DNA of 64,000 bases from Escherichia phage FL31: the sequence record PP400782; one strand, 5' to 3'. Made by a program: the position numbers and the translations under genes. Position 1 is the first letter of the stretch; every line of letters starts with the position of its first letter. This document shows, piece after piece, positions 1 through 46,743 of the stretch. A model generated the notes under the pieces. It was not told where the DNA came from. It worked only from the letters and a program-made list of their open reading frames with translations, and ran no database searches.

Positions 1-1710
1 AAGTGCACCATAAAGTGAGTTGATGAGCAATTTACGGTTAATCTGTGCAGTCATACCTGCAACTTCAGTACGTTGAGCTCTAAACAACATTTCATTAAGA
101 GATTTAGCAGACAACTTTTTAATCTTTTCTTTAATCTCATCGCTGAAGTCGAAACGATAATCAACATCTAATGGTTCGTCAACAGAAAGATTAGGATTAT
201 GCAATGCCTCTTTAATTATTTCACCATTACGTTGAGCTGCAAGCATGTAACCTTTATGTTCTTTACGTTGATTAAAGACCTTAGTGATTTCAGTTGGAAC
301 TACACCATCACGGTCTTTATAATACATCATGCCGTTAGGAGAGCAACTGTACACATCTGAAGGACGTTCAGCGATTGCGTTAATATAATCATGCAATGGA
401 GCTACTTTAAACGTTCCTGCTATTGTTTCCGGGCTAATATTCACTTGGCGAATAATACTTGGATACAGAGATGTAAGGTCGAAACTCATTACATATTTGT
501 ATCGATTTGGAATAGGTTCCTTAACAAAAGCGCCAGGATAAGGTTGAACCGGGTGAGAACGACCTTGTGGAATCACCTTGTTTTGTTCTTTAAGGCTATT
601 AAAAATAATAGCATCCCAAGTTTTAATTGGACTGAACACAGATTGAATCTGAATTTTAGCATAATAACCCATGTCCAAGCTCAAGTTGATGAACTGACGC
701 TTAGAATCAATTTGCAATACACGATACACGTCGATAATGTTATAAGAAATATATCGTTGGTGATTGCTTTCACGAAGCTTAGAAATAGGGCCGTCATATT
801 TCAGTTTACCAACGTTCAATTCAAATTCTGAAATGTAATCCAGAGAATACGACGGTTGATTAGTAAAAGAGAATTTTTTGTAAAGGTCAATGTAATCAAG
901 AACAGAGATACCGAACAATGTAATGATTTCACGAGAACCATACATGTTTTCGATAACTTTAACACGAGTTTTACGATGTGGTGATAAACGTTTCGCAGTA
1001 GATTCACCAAAAATATTCTTGATTCGGTTATACACATATGGAATATCAAATGACTCAACGTTCCATCCAGTCAAAATGACAGGAGTTTTCTGTTGCCAGA
1101 AGTTGAGATATTCCATCAACAATTCTTTTTCGTTATCGAACGGCATATAAATGATTTTATCGATAATTTCAGATGGAACTTCATCACCGCCTTGTTCTTG
1201 AAGCTTAGCAGCGATTTCAATAGACCATTCTTCTACATTACCATATGGAGAATTCAATAGATCAAATACGTAGAACCTGTCGTCAATTGAGTCATAATGG
1301 GTGATAGCATCAATCGGATGTTTTGCTTGTGATGGCTCAGGGAACCCATCCGGAGATGTTACTTCGATGTCGAAGTTAGCCACACGAATTTTTGTATGGT
1401 CGTATTTGATTTCATAGTTATAAGTGTCAGACAAATACGCCAATTTGAAATCGTCCATGCCAAGTGCTTCAAGTCCGATATCTTCCATGCGTTTAATCCA
1501 TTGGGAGGCATCACGCATATTAGCGAACAGCTTACGAGTACACGGCTTACCGTAGATATCGAAATATTTCGTAGCCTGACTTTCTGGACAATGAGCAAAC
1601 AGTGATGGTTTATATTCTACTTCACGAGTACGTTCACGGCCATTAGAATCGATGTAACGTTCAAAAATTGAATCACCAATCTGTTCAACCGTTAAGTAAA
1701 ATTCTTTCAT
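1..1710 (-). CDS. 43: DNA polymerase gp43, N-terminal ~570 codons; ORF runs off the window at position 1
   Basis: ATG at 1710-1708; translation begins MKEFYLTVEQIGDSIFERYID... matching the recalled T4 gp43 N-terminus, with exonuclease-domain motifs (FDIEV) downstream. Confidence 0.95.
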   Translation of the reverse strand, partial: MKEFYLTVEQIGDSIFERYIDSNGRERTREVEYKPSLFAHCPESQATKYFDIYGKPCTRKLFANMRDASQWIKRMEDIGLEALGMDDFKLAYLSDTYNYEIKYDHTKIRVANFDIEVTSPDGFPEPSQAKHPIDAITHYDSIDDRFYVFDLLNSPYGNVEEWSIEIAAKLQEQGGDEVPSEIIDKIIYMPFDNEKELLMEYLNFWQQKTPVILTGWNVESFDIPYVYNRIKNIFGESTAKRLSPHRKTRVKVIENMYGSREIITLFGISVLDYIDLYKKFSFTNQPSYSLDYISEFELNVGKLKYDGPISKLRESNHQRYISYNIIDVYRVLQIDSKRQFINLSLDMGYYAKIQIQSVFSPIKTWDAIIFNSLKEQNKVIPQGRSHPVQPYPGAFVKEPIPNRYKYVMSFDLTSLYPSIIRQVNISPETIAGTFKVAPLHDYINAIAERPSDVYSCSPNGMMYYKDRDGVVPTEITKVFNQRKEHKGYMLAAQRNGEIIKEALHNPNLSVDEPLDVDYRFDFSDEIKEKIKKLSAKSLNEMLFRAQRTEVAGMTAQINRKLLINSLYGAL

Positions 1711-3765: not shown

Positions 3766-4452
3766 TTAGAAGTCGTGAGTAGAATCGGCTTCCATCGCAA
3801 TAACATAACTTACTTGAGAGCTTTCAAACTTAGCTGCAACTTTATCACCAGCTCCCCACAACATTACTTTATAGTTACCTGGCTGGATTTTCATATTAGC
3901 CATATTGATTACGAAGTTAAAGTTATTAGAACCGTCATAATCAGTAAGAGTCAAAGAATACTTAGGACGAGTTAGTCCGGAATCTTCAACTTTATTATAG
4001 CCATTGATAACAATTTTACCATCTTTATTTGTAATAGCAATTGTATCAATCTGAAGTCCACGTGAAACTCGAAGCAATTGTTGAAGGTCTTCAGCTTTAA
4101 TTTCAGTAATCACAGAAGCCACTGGGAATTGAATTGGCTTATTAGGAAAAACAATGGTGCTCTTGTCGGCAGCAGGCCAATAAACTGTGGAACGTGTATC
4201 TGCAATTTTAATATTGCCATCAGTATGCATTGAAATTTCGGCATCATCAGACACTAGACTCAAAATGCTTAAGAAGCTATTCAAATCATAAAGTGCTACG
4301 TCAAAATCAATTTCATCAGAGATATTTGCTTCCGCATAAGTGGTGCCATTAACTGCACGAGTCATAATAAATTTACCTTGGCTCAGCAGAATGCCAGAGT
4401 TAATAGAAGCGAAGTTTTTCAGAATATTTACGGTTTCACGGCTAAGTTTCAT
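3766..4452 (-). CDS. 45: Sliding clamp gp45
   Basis: 228 aa; MKLSRETVNILKNFASINSGI...ADSTHDF matches recalled T4 gp45. Confidence 0.95.
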   Translation of the reverse strand: MKLSRETVNILKNFASINSGILLSQGKFIMTRAVNGTTYAEANISDEIDFDVALYDLNSFLSILSLVSDDAEISMHTDGNIKIADTRSTVYWPAADKSTIVFPNKPIQFPVASVITEIKAEDLQQLLRVSRGLQIDTIAITNKDGKIVINGYNKVEDSGLTRPKYSLTLTDYDGSNNFNFVINMANMKIQPGNYKVMLWGAGDKVAAKFESSQVSYVIAMEADSTHDF

Positions 4453-5339
4453 TTAGGTTTCCTATTAGCATAATAATTTGTCCAAGACCGGATAGCACCT
4501 TGGTATGATTCATCATTAAAACCATGCTGAATTGCATGTTTTCTAAATGTAATATAACTTGGTTTTCCTAAAGCAATCCACAATTCCTTTAATTTTTGTT
4601 CATGAAATATCCATGTACCTCTAGCTTTAGATTTTCTGAATTTATCCTTAAATTCTTTGGTTGCATTTCTTTTCGAAGCTGCGATAGAGGCCTTTGCTCT
4701 ATTTTCAGGTTTAGACCAATACAATGTTTTAGATATTTTTATTTTATCTTTAACATTAGGAGAATTCATTATATCTTTAAATTTTAAAGCAAAATCTCTA
4801 TCGTTAAACATTTTTTTAGAACGAATAGAAACTTTCTCTCTTCGTTCTTTGGTCCAATATGTTTTTTGAAATTCTCTAATTGCGTTTAAATGATTCTCCG
4901 ACAATTTGCAATTTTTTCTAACACCGACGTAATCTTCGTTTATTTCGTTTTTAGAAAGTTTTACTATTTTGCCTGTTTTTAAATTTTTATACGGTGCATA
5001 TCCTTTAGCTGATATTCTAGACTTCTCGTTAGCATAAGCCTTATTAAAATATTTTTCATTTGAAACGGCTTTAACATTGAGTTGGAATAGTCTTTCTATT
5101 CTTCTAGGGTCTAATGTGGTTTCGCCTAAAATTTTTACAGAATATTCGCCTTGGTCTATTAATCTGTTATATAAAGGAGAATACGAGGAATTAACACTAC
5201 CGGTATATATTTTACCGGTAGAATCTTCAATAATATCCTTTCCATTAAAATGACACGAAACTTTAGAACCTATATAATAACACGGGTATTCATTTTTAAT
5301 CTCACGATTATAAAAGGTTATAAGATATATTAAATTCAT
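4449..5339 (-). CDS. Putative free-standing GIY-YIG-type homing endonuclease (seg-like) with lysine-rich NUMOD-like C-terminal region
   Basis: N-terminus NLIYLITFYN...YYIGSKVS resembles the GIY...YIG module (spacing longer than canonical); C-terminal SKPENRAKASIAASKRNATKEF repeats; AT-rich relative to flanking genes; ATG at 5339 (track start 5348 is TTG). Confidence 0.45.
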   Translation of the reverse strand: MNLIYLITFYNREIKNEYPCYYIGSKVSCHFNGKDIIEDSTGKIYTGSVNSSYSPLYNRLIDQGEYSVKILGETTLDPRRIERLFQLNVKAVSNEKYFNKAYANEKSRISAKGYAPYKNLKTGKIVKLSKNEINEDYVGVRKNCKLSENHLNAIREFQKTYWTKERREKVSIRSKKMFNDRDFALKFKDIMNSPNVKDKIKISKTLYWSKPENRAKASIAASKRNATKEFKDKFRKSKARGTWIFHEQKLKELWIALGKPSYITFRKHAIQHGFNDESYQGAIRSWTNYYANRKPK

Positions 5340-5344
5340 AATTA

Positions 5345-5761
5345 TCAAGCAGCAACCATCTGCTTTTTAATAGCTTCAGGCAGTGATTCAATATATTCTG
5401 GAATTTTAGAAGCAACAATTTCGCCAGCTGCAATTAGTTGTTCGTCGGCATCAACGCAGTAGAAATCTTCCAGACGTTCAGAACCGTCTTTATCAAGAAC
5501 GATTTTAGCACCTGCTTCGATAGAATCTTTATAGTGCTTACGCATCAAATGAATCCACATATCAGACACATCGTTATCAATAAAGCCATAAATCATGAAA
5601 CGAGTTTCTTGTGGAAGAGATTGAAGCTTTTTAGCACTTGCGTCATCACAATGCAGGACCCATGCTTTACGAACACGATTATGGTTATGTGGGTTAGCGT
5701 CAGTACGGATAGAAGTAACTTTCAGATCAGCAGCAGTGAAACCTTTAGCAGTAGTAAACAT
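5345..5761 (-). CDS. Hypothetical early protein at the position of T4 rpbA
   Basis: 138 aa ORF between gene 45 region and 45.2-like ORF; assignment by synteny only. Confidence 0.45.
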   Translation of the reverse strand: MFTTAKGFTAADLKVTSIRTDANPHNHNRVRKAWVLHCDDASAKKLQSLPQETRFMIYGFIDNDVSDMWIHLMRKHYKDSIEAGAKIVLDKDGSERLEDFYCVDADEQLIAAGEIVASKIPEYIESLPEAIKKQMVAA

Positions 5762-5773
5762 ATTATTTCTCTC

Positions 5774-5965
5774 TTATTCGTAGAAGTCGGTAACTGTCCA
5801 TGCGGAATTGCGATTAGACATTATTTTATTATACTCATCTTTAAAAGCAGATTTGAGCATTTGTTCAGTAACAATATGTTCTTCACCTGAAAACGTATTG
5901 GTCAAAACATATTTTTTAATTTCAGGGACAACAAGAAGATGTTGTCCGGTTGAATACTCCGCCAT
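5774..5965 (-). CDS. Small hypothetical protein (position of T4 45.2)
   Basis: 63 aa ORF, same orientation, upstream of rpbA-position gene. Confidence 0.45.
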   Translation of the reverse strand: MAEYSTGQHLLVVPEIKKYVLTNTFSGEEHIVTEQMLKSAFKDEYNKIMSNRNSAWTVTDFYE

Positions 5966-5989
5966 TATAAATCTCCTTGATTAAAGCAA

Positions 5990-5997
5990 TATAAATA
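5990..5997 (+). promoter_or_regulatory. T4 late-promoter-like TATAAATA box upstream of the HNH endonuclease gene
   Basis: Exact TATAAATA on the plus strand 46 nt upstream of the ATG at 6043. Confidence 0.5.
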
Positions 5998-6042
5998 GGT
6001 TTATCAATTTATCTGTTGCTGTATCAAATAAGGATTTAGTAA

Positions 6043-6759
6043 ATGAATTATAACTCAATATACGAAAAGCTTATTACCAATGCTAAATCAAGAAGTTTAG
6101 ATGGTTATACAGAACGTCATCACATTATACCACAATGTTTAGGTGGAAGTGATGATGCTTTAAACTTAGTAGATTTAACACCAGAAGAACATTATTTGGC
6201 ACATCAACTGCTAGTAAAAATCCATCCAGATAATGCCTCTTTAATATATGCTGCTCGTATGATGACTATCTCATCTCCTAAAGCAGATAGAAGCAAAAAC
6301 AAATTATTTGGATGGCTTCGACGTAAGAATCAAGAAGTTCAAAAGAACAAAGAATTCACTGCTGAAACTCGTAAGAAAATGTCCGAGTCGGCAAAAAATA
6401 AACCAAAGATTACATGTCCACACTGCGGTTTAACCGGCACTGAAGGAAACATGAGACGTTGGCATTTTGATAACTGTAAACAAGGCCCTACGCCTAAAAT
6501 AGTAAAACTTGATCAAGAAACAAAGGATAAAATAATTAAAACCATGGCCACGAAAATTTGGAAAGAAGATTCTTGCCCGTTTTGTGGCTTAACTACTAAG
6601 TTATCGGCGTTAAAGCCGCATATAAAATTCTGTAAATCAAATCCTAACAGAAAGAAAAAAGAGGACAAGAAAATTAAATGTCCTCATTGCGATAAAATAG
6701 GGATCCCTGCTAATATGCATCGTTGGCATTTTGATAACTGTAAACATAAGCCTCATTAA
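6043..6759 (+). CDS. HNH homing endonuclease with NUMOD-like motif and three C-terminal CxxC zinc-ribbon repeats; only plus-strand gene in the early region
   Basis: ERHHIIPQCLGGSDDALNLVDLTPEEHYLAH (HNH core); EFTAETRKKMSESAKNK (NUMOD3-like); repeats CPHCGLTGTEGNMRRWHFDNCK / CPFCGL...KFCK / CPHCDKIGIPANMHRWHFDNCK; AGGA RBS before ATG. Confidence 0.8.
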   Translation: MNYNSIYEKLITNAKSRSLDGYTERHHIIPQCLGGSDDALNLVDLTPEEHYLAHQLLVKIHPDNASLIYAARMMTISSPKADRSKNKLFGWLRRKNQEVQKNKEFTAETRKKMSESAKNKPKITCPHCGLTGTEGNMRRWHFDNCKQGPTPKIVKLDQETKDKIIKTMATKIWKEDSCPFCGLTTKLSALKPHIKFCKSNPNRKKKEDKKIKCPHCDKIGIPANMHRWHFDNCKHKPH

Positions 6760-8444
6760 GAGGCTTTCATTACAGTAAATCGTCCAACTTTGCTCATTTG
6801 AAGATGTTGTCCATAAGCTTGTGGGTCATGGTCTCTGTGACTAATTATAAACACGTTTGCATCGGTTAGAGAGTTAAGAATTGTTGAAATAGCTTTAATA
6901 CCTTCAGAATCAGTCGCGGAATCCATGACTTCGTCCATAATTAATGTATTGATTCTAACACCAGAGACCTTTTCAGCAATATCTCGCCATGTAAACAACA
7001 ATGCGATATCGATACGTGCCTTTTCACCTTGACTAAATGAAGCATAACTGAACTCTTCACGGCCACGTGATTTTATAGATTCATTGAATTCTTCGTCAAT
7101 AGAAAACACGTAATCAGCTTCCATGATTTTAAGATAATGGTTAATCTGCTTGTTGAACAGAGGCACATATTTTTTAATGATAGCACCTTTAATACCAGAA
7201 TCTTTTAACATATCTGTGATAATACCACGATGGTATTTTTCAAGAACGATATCCGATTTTGTTTTAATGATTTTATCAAGTTCTTTTTGAAGCAAAGCTA
7301 TCTCATCGGCATGGTCGATAAATTCTGCTGAGGCTTGCTCTATTGCAGCTTTAACTTTCTTAGCTTTATCAATAGTGGCAATCATTGCTTGTTTCTTGGT
7401 ACGAATATCAGATGCAAGGTCCTGCTTAGTCTTAACATTAGCTCTATATTCATCAACTAGGACACTCAGATTATCTCTGTGACAGGTAAGTTGCTCGAAT
7501 GAGTGATTACATTCATGAAGCTTATCGGTAATCTTAGAGACAATAGGGTCACCCTGGTGCAATTGTGATGCACAAGTAGGACATGTGCCACCGTCATGAT
7601 ACATCTTAATAACTTTGTTATATGAGTCGATTTTAGATTTAATCAAGAATGCTTCTTGTCCTATCTTGTTGAATGCCTCAGTAGGGTCTTCATCAAGAAC
7701 GATATTAAGTAGTCGCTCATTAGCTTCTTCGATTTCTGCCTTTAATGAACGAGCTTCTTTGGCTAGGTCGTCATACATATTCTGTAGACGCGCTACATTA
7801 TCACCAGATAATTTCTTTTGACGTTCGATATTCTCGTTATAAATCTTAATTTGTTGGATAATACCATCTTTCTTGGCATCGAGAACTTGTCCCTGGGAAT
7901 TAAGTTCTCGAACTTGAGACTTATTGATTTTATCCATTTCAGCGAGTGTGCCGACTTCTAAAAGGTCTTCGACAAGTTTTCTACGAGCAGGGGTGCTAAG
8001 AGCCATGAAAGGGGTATACCCTGCCGTCCCAAGCACAACGATTTGTTTAAAAGACGCGTATGACATTCCGATGCTACGTTCAAATTCTTCTTGGAAGTCA
8101 CGACTGCTGGCAGATTCATCGAGACGAACACCGTCAACGGAGATTTCGAAAATATTGGGCTTTTGGCCACGTTTAATGAAGTATTTTTTATCATCGAATT
8201 CCATCCAAAGCTCAACTAAGAGCTCTTTCTTGTTCGTGCTATTAATGATTTGTCCTTTCTTAACATCACGAAATGGTTTACCGAAAAGTCCGAAAGTAAT
8301 GGCTTCTAACATCGTAGATTTACCACCGCCATTTTTACCGGTGATTAAGGTCTTTTGGACTTTATCTAATTGGATATCGATAGGATTCCCACCTACCGAC
8401 ATGATGTTTTGATAACGAACACGATTTAATTTAAATGATTTCAT
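6756..8444 (-). CDS. 46: Recombination endonuclease subunit gp46 (Rad50/SbcC-like ATPase)
   Basis: 562 aa; Walker A GKNGGGKST, coiled-coil middle, CPTC zinc hook, Walker B LIMDEV; T4 gp46-like. Confidence 0.95.
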   Translation of the reverse strand: MKSFKLNRVRYQNIMSVGGNPIDIQLDKVQKTLITGKNGGGKSTMLEAITFGLFGKPFRDVKKGQIINSTNKKELLVELWMEFDDKKYFIKRGQKPNIFEISVDGVRLDESASSRDFQEEFERSIGMSYASFKQIVVLGTAGYTPFMALSTPARRKLVEDLLEVGTLAEMDKINKSQVRELNSQGQVLDAKKDGIIQQIKIYNENIERQKKLSGDNVARLQNMYDDLAKEARSLKAEIEEANERLLNIVLDEDPTEAFNKIGQEAFLIKSKIDSYNKVIKMYHDGGTCPTCASQLHQGDPIVSKITDKLHECNHSFEQLTCHRDNLSVLVDEYRANVKTKQDLASDIRTKKQAMIATIDKAKKVKAAIEQASAEFIDHADEIALLQKELDKIIKTKSDIVLEKYHRGIITDMLKDSGIKGAIIKKYVPLFNKQINHYLKIMEADYVFSIDEEFNESIKSRGREEFSYASFSQGEKARIDIALLFTWRDIAEKVSGVRINTLIMDEVMDSATDSEGIKAISTILNSLTDANVFIISHRDHDPQAYGQHLQMSKVGRFTVMKAS

Positions 8445-8689
8445 ATGTATTCTCTTCGAATGAAGTCCTCTACATATTTTAACATGTCATCTCTATCAGC
8501 AAAATACTCATCTAGTTCTGCATACATAACAACACCTGGTGCGTACTCACAGGTAACATACATTGTTCCAAAGAAACGAGGAGTTGATTCCTCGTAATTC
8601 TCAGTCCATTCAACGATGCCAATATAACCGTCACCAATACTAAATTCATGACGATGGATTTCATAATCAGTCTTCGTCATTATACGCAT
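8441..8689 (-). CDS. Hypothetical protein (46.1 position)
   Basis: Small ORF between 46 and 47; track start is TTG, first ATG at 8689. Confidence 0.45.
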   Translation of the reverse strand: MRIMTKTDYEIHRHEFSIGDGYIGIVEWTENYEESTPRFFGTMYVTCEYAPGVVMYAELDEYFADRDDMLKYVEDFIRREYI

Positions 8690-8924
8690 CCTCAATACAC
8701 GCTTCAGCCATTTTAAGAATAGAACCGGGAGTATCGTTGTCCATTATATTAAAGCTAAATTCAATAGCCCAGTCGGTGCAGACATGAACTGCTTTAACTT
8801 CATTGCCTTCAACGCGTAATGGCTCAATCCAATACTTGATAGTGTTCTCGAATCCATCATCATCTTTAACGTCTATTTCAACTTCAAGCCCGAGCCCAGC
8901 ATTGTTAAATTCATCTAAAGTCAT
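8667..8924 (-). CDS. Hypothetical protein (46.2 position)
   Basis: 85 aa ORF with ATG at 8924, overlapping start of downstream ORF. Confidence 0.45.
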   Translation of the reverse strand: MTLDEFNNAGLGLEVEIDVKDDDGFENTIKYWIEPLRVEGNEVKAVHVCTDWAIEFSFNIMDNDTPGSILKMAEACIEDAYNDED

Positions 8925-9940: not shown

Positions 9941-9992
9941 ATTATTTCCTCATTAGTTAATTCATTTTATCATCCGTTTATAAAGCAAAAAA

Positions 9993-46158: not shown

Positions 46159-46743
46159 TTAGCGCAAGGAAGGGTGTCTAGAAATGGATTTAGATTCGGC
46201 AGCCTGACGTGGTTGTTGAGATACAATGACTTCGCCATCCTTTTCTATCGTCATATACGCGTAATGAATAGTTGCTACGCAAGTAACGGCAGGGTCAGAG
46301 TCTTCGGTGTAACTAAATTCAATTTCACTCAAATCAGAAATCCATGGTTTATAGAAATTCGCCGTCAAAACTACTTCAGTCTTATTGTTGTTTAAAATGT
46401 GCAAAGTAACAAACTCAGGACCATCGGAGTGTGCCGTATTATGTCCGGTTATATAGTTATTAGTGCTGAGCATCCATTTATACATGTTCATCCAGGACGT
46501 CATGTCTTCATCAACTATAAATCGTACAACAAAAGGGTCATATTCAAATGTGGTGCCTGCACGCATTGCACGTCCTAACCCCATTGTGCCTGTCACAGTT
46601 TCAACAACAGGAATTCTCACACCTGGCAATGGAGCCGTTTGGGCATTGAGCACAAAACCTGAAGTTCGTGTACTATCCGGGATATCCACAACAAAGTTTG
46701 TTATATTTGTTTGGTTAAAAATCTGTCTCGCTGGACGAGTCAT
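46159..46743 (-). CDS. 3: Tail completion/sheath stabiliser gp3
   Basis: By synteny (1-3-2-4) and size; ATG at 46743 (track start is GTG). Confidence 0.7.
   Translation of the reverse strand: MTRPARQIFNQTNITNFVVDIPDSTRTSGFVLNAQTAPLPGVRIPVVETVTGTMGLGRAMRAGTTFEYDPFVVRFIVDEDMTSWMNMYKWMLSTNNYITGHNTAHSDGPEFVTLHILNNNKTEVVLTANFYKPWISDLSEIEFSYTEDSDPAVTCVATIHYAYMTIEKDGEVIVSQQPRQAAESKSISRHPSLR

Follow-up and report, generated by a model that had tools for sequence, protein, structure and literature searches.

The Mob endonuclease genes of T4 are free-standing, lie between essential DNA-metabolism genes and are patchily present in close relatives. One of them, mobE, occupies the nrdA/nrdB site. It is promoterless, co-oriented and co-transcribed with nrdA, and its product was mobile in experiments, with the HNH motif required, and nicked one strand rather than making a double-strand cut (PMC2790892). 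The HNH endonuclease I-TevIII, encoded within the group I intron of nrdB in phage RB3, joins an N-terminal HNH domain to two C-terminal zinc fingers of a DNA-binding type, and dimerises to make a double-strand break. The CX2CX12-13HX3C motifs of I-TevIII bind zinc and are needed for DNA binding (PMC1865063). T4 segD, a free-standing GIY-YIG endonuclease gene located among late genes, is oriented opposite to the genes around it, and no promoter belonging to it could be identified (PMC2988022). RB69 has been listed as having no homing endonuclease genes (PMC2993671).

The DNA analysed here (the window; 64,000 nucleotides of sequence record PP400782, Escherichia phage FL31) derives from a Mosigvirus, an RB69-like coliphage, 98.7% identical to vB_EcoM_G2285. 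At its 45.2/46 junction lies a gene that, like those of the T4 Mob enzymes, is free-standing, placed between essential DNA-metabolism genes and patchy in close relatives. Unlike mobE, it sits at 45.2/46 rather than nrdA/nrdB, runs antisense to all neighbouring genes and carries a late-promoter box of its own. Its strand orientation recalls segD, but the encoded enzyme is of the HNH rather than the GIY-YIG type, and the gene lies among early/middle genes with a late box upstream. We consider this feature to be probably a free-standing T4 Mob-type homing endonuclease cassette at the Mosigvirus 45.2/46 junction that is mobile by homing. As selfish genes of T4-like phages go, the gene is an ordinary one, of a known kind and already annotated as 'homing endonuclease' in GenBank, and adding the 45.2/46 junction to the homing-endonuclease sites of these phages is of little import beyond bookkeeping. 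Searches of the open-access literature turned up no publication dealing with an endonuclease at this junction and no cleavage, homing or transcript work on the window enzyme or its orthologues.

The gene and its neighbours

5774-5965, minus strand: gene 45.2, 63 aa, phrog_1045
6043-6759, plus strand: homing endonuclease ORF at the 45.2/46 junction, intact, 238 aa, ATG start
6756-8444, minus strand: gene 46, SbcC-like recombination nuclease subunit, 562 aa

The initial annotation described the only plus-strand gene in 48 kb of minus-strand early genes, situated between the 45.2 ORF and gene 46, and both points were borne out by an ORF scan and the G2285 record. From position 1 to ~48,180, the ORF at 6043-6759 is the sole plus-strand ORF of at least 90 aa other than antisense shadows of minus-strand genes. 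The collinear stretch of G2285 likewise holds a single plus-strand CDS, and its plus-strand baseplate genes begin at locus position 46,446, as against 48,181 in the window. A second plus-strand candidate at 391-831 was rejected, as it falls within gene 43, whose minus-strand reading frame stays open from 1710 to the edge of the window. The endonuclease gene is antisense to all adjoining transcription units. Genes 45.2 and 46 on either side are both still intact ORFs, so the element is free-standing and neither an intron nor an intein. Its stop codon does overlap that of gene 46 in convergent orientation, as originally reported, the two having TTAA (6756-6759) in common.

Protein domains and relation to known endonucleases

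The encoded protein consists of an N-terminal Mob-type HNH domain, two NUMOD3-like helices and three zinc fingers, with the following features:

6109-6216, plus strand: HNH catalytic core, aa 23-58, with H26, H27, N41, H50 and H54
6355-6402, plus strand: NUMOD3-like helix 1, aa 105-120, FTAETRKKMSESAKNK, read from the sequence; modelled as a helix at 107-118
6415-6477, plus strand: zinc finger 1 (C125, C128, H141, C145; CX2CX12HX3C), read from the sequence; beta-hairpin plus helix in the model
6457-6482, plus strand: 26-nt exact repeat, copy 1, encoding RWHFDNCK of finger 1
6508-6555, plus strand: NUMOD3-like helix 2, aa 156-171, LDQETKDKIIKTMATK, read from the sequence; modelled as a helix at 158-170
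6574-6633, plus strand: zinc finger 2 (C178, C181, H193, C197; CX2CX11HX3C), aligning with I-TevIII finger 1
6679-6741, plus strand: zinc finger 3 (C213, C216, H229, C233; CX2CX12HX3C), aligning with I-TevIII finger 2
6721-6746, plus strand: 26-nt exact repeat, copy 2, encoding RWHFDNCK of finger 3

A clear HNH core and a NUMOD3-like motif had been claimed for this protein. Residues and homologues agree with both, but the protein itself lies below the Pfam thresholds, and the two assignments therefore rest on homologues and conserved residues. Its best HNH match is to HNH_5 (E 0.069; 13.5 bits against a cut-off of 27.5), and NUMOD3 does not occur among 25 of the 27 Pfam families listed for it at E ≤ 1. 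Pfam HNH (PF01844) is matched by 54 of 91 homologues, HNH_5 by 21 of 91 (E ≤ 0.01) and NUMOD3 (PF07460) by 49 of 91 (best E 1.7e-29). The catalytic residues H26, H27, N41, H50 and H54 are intact on alignment and invariant across the 91 homologues, while the HNH-motif residues are nearly invariant in 120 homologues and align with the motif of MobE. The protein also matches phrog_12434 ('HNH endonuclease'; E 4.6e-12) and phrog_655 ('homing endonuclease'; E 6.9e-67), and 2533 homologues were obtained at E ≤ 1e-5.

Structure models reached pLDDT values of 93.8 and 95.8. The HNH core in the latter is predicted to form strand 24-27, strand 42-45 and helix 47-60, a beta-beta-alpha arrangement, and aa 105-120 and 156-171, which fit the NUMOD3 pattern by eye, are helical in the model. 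The top Foldseek matches of the N-terminal domain (Cas8-HNH, EcoKMcrA, colicin E9, Gme HNH and Cas9 HNH) were not significant (best E 0.47), and whole-protein fold searches gave nothing informative. A PDB sequence search returned no relative, its best matches being chance CxxC similarity to LapB (E 0.14).

Three C-terminal repeats are present, as first described; however, they are CX2C-X11-12-H-X3-C fingers, modelled as beta-hairpin plus helix, and not CxxC...CxxC zinc ribbons. The ligands of finger 3 (C213, C216, H229 and C233) are invariant in the 91 homologues. The identical 26-nt stretch noted in two of the repeats was recovered exactly (6457-6482 = 6721-6746), and it sits in a 77-nt direct repeat of 73% identity.

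The initial annotation had suggested a homology search against I-TevIII and Mob-type enzymes, and this search gave significant results for the Mob HNH domain and for the I-TevIII fingers. Over the first ~120 aa, blastp aligned the protein with T4 MobE (44% identity, E 7e-28), MobB (43.5%, 6e-25), MobD (37.5%, 4e-24) and MobC (36%, 2e-18), together with the MobA remnant (E 7e-6); N-terminal identity was also 44% to MobE of RB3. The signature MNY..IY..LI...HHIIP..MGGSDD.NLV.LT..EH..AH is common to the window protein and T4 MobB-E. The C-terminal half differs, as the T4 Mob proteins are without the three CCHC fingers. Fingers 2-3 are 38% identical to both I-TevIII fingers over 74 aa (E 2e-10) and finger 1 is weakly similar to I-TevIII finger 2 (E 3e-4), with spacings of 12, 11 and 12 in the window protein compared to CX2CX12-13HX3C in I-TevIII. 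The two proteins share their overall plan, yet the window gene is free-standing rather than intron-encoded, its product has three fingers rather than two, and the HNH domains are of different subtype with no BLAST similarity; the window protein is not an I-TevIII orthologue. The gene is a clean, naturally occurring example of domain shuffling, in which a Mob-type HNH domain has been joined to I-TevIII-type fingers. If characterised, the enzyme would add to the known sequence-tolerant HNH nucleases one whose modular DNA-binding domain has three fingers.

Cassette boundaries and expression signals

The gene is part of a larger replaced segment, whose features outside the coding sequence are listed below:

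5961-6766: homing-endonuclease cassette, 806 bp; insert-free Mosigvirus genomes have 67 bp instead
5964-5988, minus strand: MotA-type middle-promoter-like element TGCTTTA-N12-TATAAT at the left end of the cassette, a pattern match of presumed function
5990-5997, plus strand: T4-type late-promoter box TATAAATA, exact match, 45 nt between box and ATG
6030-6034, plus strand: Shine-Dalgarno-like AAGGA, 8 nt before the ATG, read from the sequence
6737-6776, both strands: two-tier hairpin with both convergent stops (TTAA, 6756-6759) in its loop

Comparison of the 45.2-46 junction with that of insert-free relatives, as had been recommended, defined the insertion site as 5961-6766. The borders were set by fixed differences between 9 carriers and 7 non-carriers, all of which fall within these coordinates and none in the flanks; they are sharp and the same in 9 of 9 carriers. 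The length difference of 739 bp agrees with the gap between BLAST pieces. The 67 bp that were replaced hold the start codon of 45.2, a promoter-like hairpin spacer and, from gene 46, the stop together with the three sense codons before it. The cassette supplies a start codon and an extra Ala codon to gene 45.2 (MAEYS vs MEYS), the latter also found in the Tequatrovirus carrier T4_ev240, and provides the stop and final three sense codons of gene 46, with KAS replacing TVS. The left boundary of the cassette is homologous in Tequatrovirus. Alignment of the left end with the native spacer gave an ambiguous result as to homology. The statement in the initial annotation that T4 has no gene at this position proved correct, the T4 45.2-46 spacer being 55 bp long and without an endonuclease gene. 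In both T4 and Mosigvirus the empty junction is organised, with a MotA-type middle-promoter-like element inside a strong hairpin.

The box TATAAATA is not enriched in the window (8 copies vs 8.7 expected by chance), and because of this the motif count alone is no evidence for a late promoter. The box is retained ahead of the orthologues of Tequatrovirus and Dhakavirus; in F2, T4_ev240 and MX01 (three genera) an exact copy precedes the gene by 33-45 nt, a conserved spacing, and the PSD2001 orthologue has CATAAATA at the box position, with one mismatch. No late box was found upstream of the COW86c orthologue. The exact match originally reported is present in the window, and its reading as a late promoter is backed by its retention upstream of orthologues in other genera, from which we infer late transcription of the endonuclease gene from a gp55-dependent promoter. 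No sigma-70-like early promoter scored above the scan threshold in the 77-bp upstream spacer, with regional counts at chance level. Masking of the ribosome-binding site by RNA structure, of the type known from I-TevI and mobE, found no support, the 5' leader (6003-6060) having no significant structure (z -0.73, no better than shuffles).

On the minus strand, the -10 of the middle-promoter-like element overlaps the 45.2 start codon. The pattern TGCTTTA-N12-TATAAT has 12 matches in the window, 9 of them on the minus strand, vs 1.84 expected. The MotA-like box and -10 are kept in the cassette copies of F2, ESCO47 and OZ035759, and an equivalent MotA-like element is present in the native spacers of T4 and AV116. 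At the other end of the cassette, the hairpin is built from an inner stem (6748-6754/6760-6766) and an outer stem (6737-6743/6770-6776) and folds as RNA on either strand (-17.8 kcal/mol, z -8.0; -17.9 kcal/mol, z -5.3). Its inner stem, (A)AGCCTC/GAGGCT(T), is kept in MX01, PSD2001 and COW86c. No intrinsic terminator was called 3' of the endonuclease gene, and the hairpin has no U-tract.

The cassette carries its own putative T4-type late promoter, a ribosome-binding site, the 238-aa enzyme and a hairpin around the convergent stops, and on its opposite strand a middle-promoter-like element and the new 45.2 start. In the enzyme, an HNH nuclease domain of predicted beta-beta-alpha-metal type is tethered via the NUMOD3-like helices to three CCHC fingers like those with which I-TevIII binds DNA. 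The comparisons thus show the anatomy of the cassette, its family membership, its presence/absence polymorphism, selection against amino-acid change and a single transfer footprint; DNA cleavage, where its target lies, expression late in infection and homing are inferred, as follows. On coinfection of one cell by a carrier and a non-carrier, the enzyme would be made late from the gp55-dependent promoter and would nick or cut the non-carrier genome at its empty 45.2/46 junction; both modes are possible, since a single-strand nick was observed for MobE, the closest characterised relative. T4-type recombination-dependent repair would then copy the cassette into the break (intronless homing), and carrier genomes would be immune because, it is proposed, the insertion replaced the 67-bp target region.

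A bolder extension, which we regard as possible though rather doubtful, is that the cassette forms a self-contained, host-compensating module directed at the native regulatory spacer itself. The cassette would remove the native promoter-hairpin spacer and bring replacements, namely the minus-strand TGCTTTA-N12-TATAAT element, which adjoins the cassette late promoter back to back, the new 45.2 start, and a two-way hairpin closing gene 46 as well as the endonuclease gene. The promoter-hairpin spacer would in that case be what the enzyme recognises, and late convergent transcription of the cassette might damp gene 46/47 expression late in infection. With the enzyme characterised, the cassette could be a handy system for examining how a selfish cassette replaces displaced host regulatory signals.

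Distribution, selection and competing explanations

Cassette carriers account for 13 of ~155 Mosigvirus records, and an orthologue is found at the homologous site in 60 of ~503 Tequatrovirus records; far from being at this position in all relatives, the gene is absent from most of them as well as from T4. Orthologues sharing this junction and orientation occur in Mosigvirus, Tequatrovirus, Dhakavirus, Gaprivervirus, Erwinia phage COW86c and Cronobacter phages. The G2469 protein is 100% identical to the window protein and that of F2 differs by one residue. Orthologues with the same position and orientation have been annotated in F2 (YP_010068820.1, 'homing endonuclease'), NHEP10 and NRG-P0074, and that of a Cronobacter phage at the same junction is labelled 'Mob-like HNH homing endonuclease'. 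These public labels were assigned by similarity.

Compared to the window copy, orthologues in other genera have 57-68% aa identity and saturated dS, while gene 46 has 66-82% (the comparison uses the gene 46 and rpbA rows; those of gene 45, at ~21-24% identity, were at noise level, probably from wrong coordinates, and were discarded). Since same-site orthologues from five or more lineages show roughly the divergence of gene 46, the element is, on this evidence, an old resident of 45.2/46 in Tevenvirinae that cycles within genera and not a recent import from outside. The acquired homing element of the initial annotation is supported by the patchy presence, with the amendment that it has long resided at the locus; the divergence fits long residence as well as active spread.

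The ORF is intact in 9 of 9 Mosigvirus copies read. Among the eight non-chimeric copies dN/dS is 0-0.08, and synonymous to non-synonymous differences among Mosigvirus copies run at 24:1, 15:1 and 8:1, pointing to strong purifying selection on the cassette copies. The ESCO47 copy has H27Y in the catalytic histidine pair. ESCO47 is 99-100% identical to the window over the cassette and ~220 bp of gene 46, with a left flank at ~85%; this block is a transfer footprint and shows recent lateral movement of the cassette. It is also the single, indirect sign of the endonuclease-dependent, super-Mendelian inheritance that homing would give in mixed infections. The left flank of the window is closest to that of the non-carrier pEB20 (99.3%). 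No general co-conversion signal was seen, as carriers were no more alike near the junction than far away (9 carriers vs 7 non-carriers, a small sample with averages dominated by the divergent ESCO47 and FL18).

The strength of this selection (very strong at such dN/dS values) is also what would be expected of a domesticated nuclease, descended from a homing endonuclease but kept for its benefit to the phage and not for self-copying; the benefit might lie in cutting DNA from co-infecting relatives (marker exclusion) or in aiding recombination or amplification near gene 46. The cassette does look well integrated, bringing a 45.2 start and ribosome-binding site, a middle-promoter-like element and a hairpin in place of those displaced, and SegB, another T-even homing endonuclease, is reported to have a host-beneficial role (PMC13096335). 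However, were the gene generally useful, one would expect it in more than the ~8-12% of close relatives that carry the cassette, and H27Y in ESCO47 is as expected of a dispensable selfish gene. Marker exclusion is moreover a normal outcome of intronless homing, which makes this explanation hard to tell from that of a mobile cassette. We consider domestication unlikely.

Less likely still is an ancestral Tevenvirinae gene at 45.2/46, inherited vertically and deleted many times, so that its patchiness reflects loss rather than gain. The shared junction and orientation across genera and a divergence about that of gene 46 would suit such a history. The empty sites are not deletion scars, though, as the T4 and Mosigvirus spacers hold a middle-promoter-like element in a strong hairpin; flanking haplotypes do not sort by cassette presence, as the match of the window to pEB20 illustrates; and the ESCO47 identity block speaks for recent lateral movement. 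An ancestral origin would in any case be compatible with homing if the element persists via repeated cycles of homing and loss. The window copy could also be a decaying relic of a past invader, now inactive; such relics are common in T4, where mobA and I-TevIII are defective, and the ESCO47 copy has H27Y. Given that the window copy keeps every invariant catalytic and zinc-binding residue and has no frameshift or stop, with near-identical relatives differing almost only at synonymous sites, we regard this as very improbable for the window gene.

In G2285, G2469 and ST0 the gene is omitted or labelled hypothetical, and Mob-like HNH homing endonuclease would be a safe label.

Gene context and protein family

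Along its whole length, the 3 kb around the endonuclease matched Escherichia phage vB_EcoM_G2285, a Mosigvirus of the RB69/JS09 group, at 98.7%, and 244 phage records matched this region at least partly. The minus-strand gene order is 43, regA, 62, 44, 45, rpbA, 45.2, 46, 46.1, 46.2, 47, with the endonuclease between 45.2 and 46:

6043..6759, plus strand: endonuclease ORF, 238 aa; AAGGA lies 8 nt ahead of the ATG

As the initial annotation had stated, this is the sole plus-strand gene in ~48 kb: an ORF scan (at least 90 aa) found no other plus-strand ORF free of minus-strand gene overlap in the first ~48 kb of the window, and the G2285 annotation likewise holds one plus-strand CDS, the endonuclease. 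The convergent overlap with gene 46 is also as described, both stops sharing TTAA at 6756-6759, and T4 indeed has no gene at this position, its 45.2-46 spacer being merely 55 bp. A candidate second plus-strand gene at 391-831 was rejected, as it lies inside gene 43, whose minus-strand frame stays open between 1710 and the edge of the window; 1-1710 (minus strand) holds the N-terminal 570 codons of this DNA polymerase gene. The record of G2285, which is near-identical to the window, marks its polymerase gene as interrupted (‘unable to determine intron/exon boundaries’) and places an extra CDS within it; just beyond the window, an insertion may therefore be present in the polymerase gene of this phage group.

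The protein matched phrog_655 ‘homing endonuclease’ (E 6.9e-67) and had 2533 homologues at E <= 1e-5. It fell below Pfam thresholds itself (HNH_5, E 0.069); among 91 aligned homologues, Pfam matches were to PF01844 HNH (54/91), HNH_5 (21/91) and NUMOD3 (49/91). Blastp against T4 proteins gave 44% identity to MobE over 120 aa (E 7e-28), followed by MobB (43.5%), MobD (37.5%), MobC (36%) and the MobA remnant (50% over 30 aa); RB3 MobE was also 44% identical. The two zinc fingers of I-TevIII aligned with residues 163-234 (38% identity, E 2e-10), and its HNH domain showed no similarity by blastp. The homology search that had been proposed thus recovered Mob-type enzymes and the fingers of I-TevIII. 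In I-TevIII, CX2CX12-13HX3C motifs bind one zinc ion each and are required for DNA binding (PMC1865063).

The HNH core and three C-terminal zinc repeats noted at first are present, and the NUMOD3-like motif is supported through the homologues, though the label of zinc ribbon did not stand. Far from being lost on alignment, the HNH residues H26, H27, N41, H50 and H54 were invariant in the 91 homologues, as were P30, G35, C213, C216, H229 and C233. Three CX2C...HX3C-type motifs were found (C125/C128/H141/C145, C178/C181/H193/C197 and C213/C216/H229/C233). In the AlphaFold model (pLDDT 93.8) each forms a beta-hairpin followed by a helix, which rules out zinc ribbons and identifies the modelled repeats as beta-beta-alpha CCHC fingers; a NUMOD3-like helix precedes both finger 1 and finger 2. 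Modelled on its own, the N-terminal domain (pLDDT 95.8) shows a strand-strand-helix core; its best structural matches were HNH domains, at non-significant scores (best E 0.47). Neither fold searches with the whole protein nor a search of PDB sequences returned a useful match. We infer that the gene encodes a Mob-type HNH homing endonuclease and forms a free-standing cassette. The observation is real and its first interpretation correct; the gene is a further member of a well-known kind, of low interest to the specialist. GenBank records of close relatives already label it ‘homing endonuclease’, and no experimental work on it was found in the open-access literature.

Limits of the cassette and its insertion site

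Comparison with insert-free relatives, as had been proposed, defined the insertion. Nine carriers (the window, G2285, F2, 348Ecol098PP, NHEP10, ST0, ESCO47, OZ035759 and NRG-P0074) were compared with seven non-carriers (AV116, pEB20, FL18, mogra, mar007P3, JK45 and SQ17). All fixed differences fell within 5961-6766, with none in the 600 bp to the left or the 1.7 kb to the right, so that the predicted target most likely lies within the 67 bp displaced by the 806-bp cassette. Within these 67 bp are the start codon of 45.2, the spacer, and the 3' end of gene 46, namely its final three sense codons and its stop. Since the cassette replaces both gene ends, gp45.2 starts MAEYS rather than MEYS and gp46 ends KAS rather than TVS. 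In the Tequatrovirus carrier T4_ev240, compared with the empty junction of T4, the left boundary is at the homologous base with the same extra Ala codon, so the site is specific and common to both genera.

The right end of the cassette carries a predicted hairpin:

6737-6776, both strands: two-tier hairpin at the cassette end, with both stop codons in the loop

Its folding energy was -17.8 kcal/mol (z -8.0) on one strand and -17.9 kcal/mol (z -5.3) on the other; it lacks a U-tract and received no terminator call. The inner stem is kept in MX01, PSD2001 and COW86c. At empty junctions the strong hairpin is a different one (AV116, -25 to -27 kcal/mol; T4, -19 to -21 kcal/mol). The cassette thus appears to substitute its own structure for the displaced one, and this structure might act in 3' end formation or stabilisation.

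Expression signals

The exact late-promoter box reported upstream of the ORF was confirmed: TATAAATA lies at 5990-5997, 45 nt before the ATG. The motif alone proves nothing, since it occurs 8 times in the window where chance would give 8.7. Unlike the count, its placement is informative: in F2, T4_ev240 and MX01 the orthologues have an exact TATAAATA 33-45 nt upstream, with a conserved leader after it (..TTTATC..GCTGTATCAAA.AAGGAT..). The PSD2001 orthologue has CATAAATA, and no such box was found upstream of the COW86c orthologue. Read-through expression is not open to the endonuclease, as it is antisense to all neighbouring transcription units, and the 77-bp upstream spacer yielded no sigma-70-like call. 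T4 mobE, in contrast, is promoterless and co-transcribed with nrdA, whereas the window gene has a candidate late-promoter box of its own. Late expression, probably from its own promoter, is thus the best-supported reading. No significant RNA structure was found in the leader.

A second element within the cassette, found by pattern match, lies on the other strand:

5964-5988, minus strand: TGCTTTA-N12-TATAAT, middle-promoter-like element

The MotA-type pattern TGCTTYA-N11-13-TANNNT occurred 12 times in the window against 1.84 expected, nine of them on the minus strand (for example 4551-4575, 4768-4791, 7270-7294 and 9964-9987). Box and -10 of the cassette element are kept in other Mosigvirus copies. 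As its -10 overlaps the 45.2 start codon, putative transcripts would serve rpbA and gene 45, not 45.2. The element would fit a published remark that T4 endonuclease genes often contain promoters for the host genes downstream of them (PMC2988022). The empty spacers of AV116 (locus L002, 2464-2517) and T4 (locus L009, 4248-4302) hold an equivalent element; their sequences differ between Mosigvirus and T4, and in both a strong hairpin (16-18 bp) encloses the box and -10, a conserved arrangement.

Distribution, mobility and neighbouring endonuclease genes

That the gene is an acquired element, not common to all relatives, was supported by its distribution: 13 of ~155 Mosigvirus records (identity >= 90%) and 60 of ~503 Tequatrovirus records carry it, with junction and orientation in the latter as in the window. 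RB69 is listed without homing endonuclease genes (PMC2993671). Orthologues also occupy this junction and orientation in Dhakavirus MX01, Gaprivervirus PSD2001, Erwinia phage COW86c and Cronobacter phages, where they are annotated ‘Mob-like HNH homing endonuclease’. Between genera the endonuclease protein is 57-68% identical (dS saturated) and gene 46 66-82%, a similar divergence, so that the lineage is old at this locus.

Close relatives are polymorphic for the endonuclease, and it is under purifying selection; all Mosigvirus copies are intact, with differences nearly all synonymous (24:1, 15:1, 8:1 and 7:0, synonymous:non-synonymous). Flank haplotypes did not sort by cassette presence, and no general co-conversion signal was seen within Mosigvirus (nine carriers, seven non-carriers). 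Between ESCO47 and the window, identity is ~85% in the rpbA/45.2 flank, rises to 99-100% across the cassette and next ~220 bp of gene 46, and then falls again, the footprint that would be expected had the cassette recently been transferred along with a short stretch of flank. In the ESCO47 copy (locus L014, 3718-4434) the single residue difference from the window copy is H27Y, which affects the invariant pair of catalytic histidines; this copy may have invaded and then been inactivated. The copy in OZ035759, a Mosigvirus mar005p1 assembly (locus L015, 3702-4418), is chimeric: residues 1-155 are nearly identical to the window protein and residues 156-238 (fingers 2 and 3) are of another sequence type. 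The gene is entirely absent from other records under that phage name (LR027383 and others).

The 26-nt stretch said to be shared by two zinc repeats is exact (6457-6482 = 6721-6746), lies inside a 77-nt repeat of 73% identity and codes for the RWHFDNCK segment of fingers 1 and 3. Most Mosigvirus copies keep it exact; in F2, NRG-P0074 and OZ035759 synonymous changes interrupt it. Synonymous sites of the two RWHFDNCK segments (6448-6483 and 6712-6747) are mostly alike within one lineage but not from one lineage to another (TTT in both in the window and in PSD2001, TTC in MX01), a thin hint of occasional conversion between fingers 1 and 3.

Further endonuclease genes lie nearby:

4449-5348, minus strand: ORF between gene 45 and rpbA, 299 aa; N-terminal 140 aa match phrog_7504 ‘homing endonuclease’ (E 3e-16)
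4590-5450 of the F2 locus (L004): third endonuclease gene, directly downstream of gene 46, at or next to 46.1, annotated HNH / ‘MobE mobile endonuclease’
6119-6973 of the NRG-P0074 locus (L016): the same, likewise annotated
5351-6211 of the SQ17 locus (L021): the same, likewise annotated

The ORF at 4449-5348, ~700 bp from the first endonuclease gene, is a second polymorphic one: it is present in some relatives only (G2285, AV116-AV118, FL18 and JM17), as bases 1-342 of the 3-kb query were covered in those alone. Its counterpart is two CDSs in G2285 and FL18. Two of the MotA-type matches fall inside it. The third gene is found in some Mosigvirus genomes, with or without the 45.2/46 cassette; the window lacks it, 46.1 (8441-8695) directly adjoining gene 46. 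Its protein is weakly similar to the 45.2/46 endonuclease (E 7e-5).
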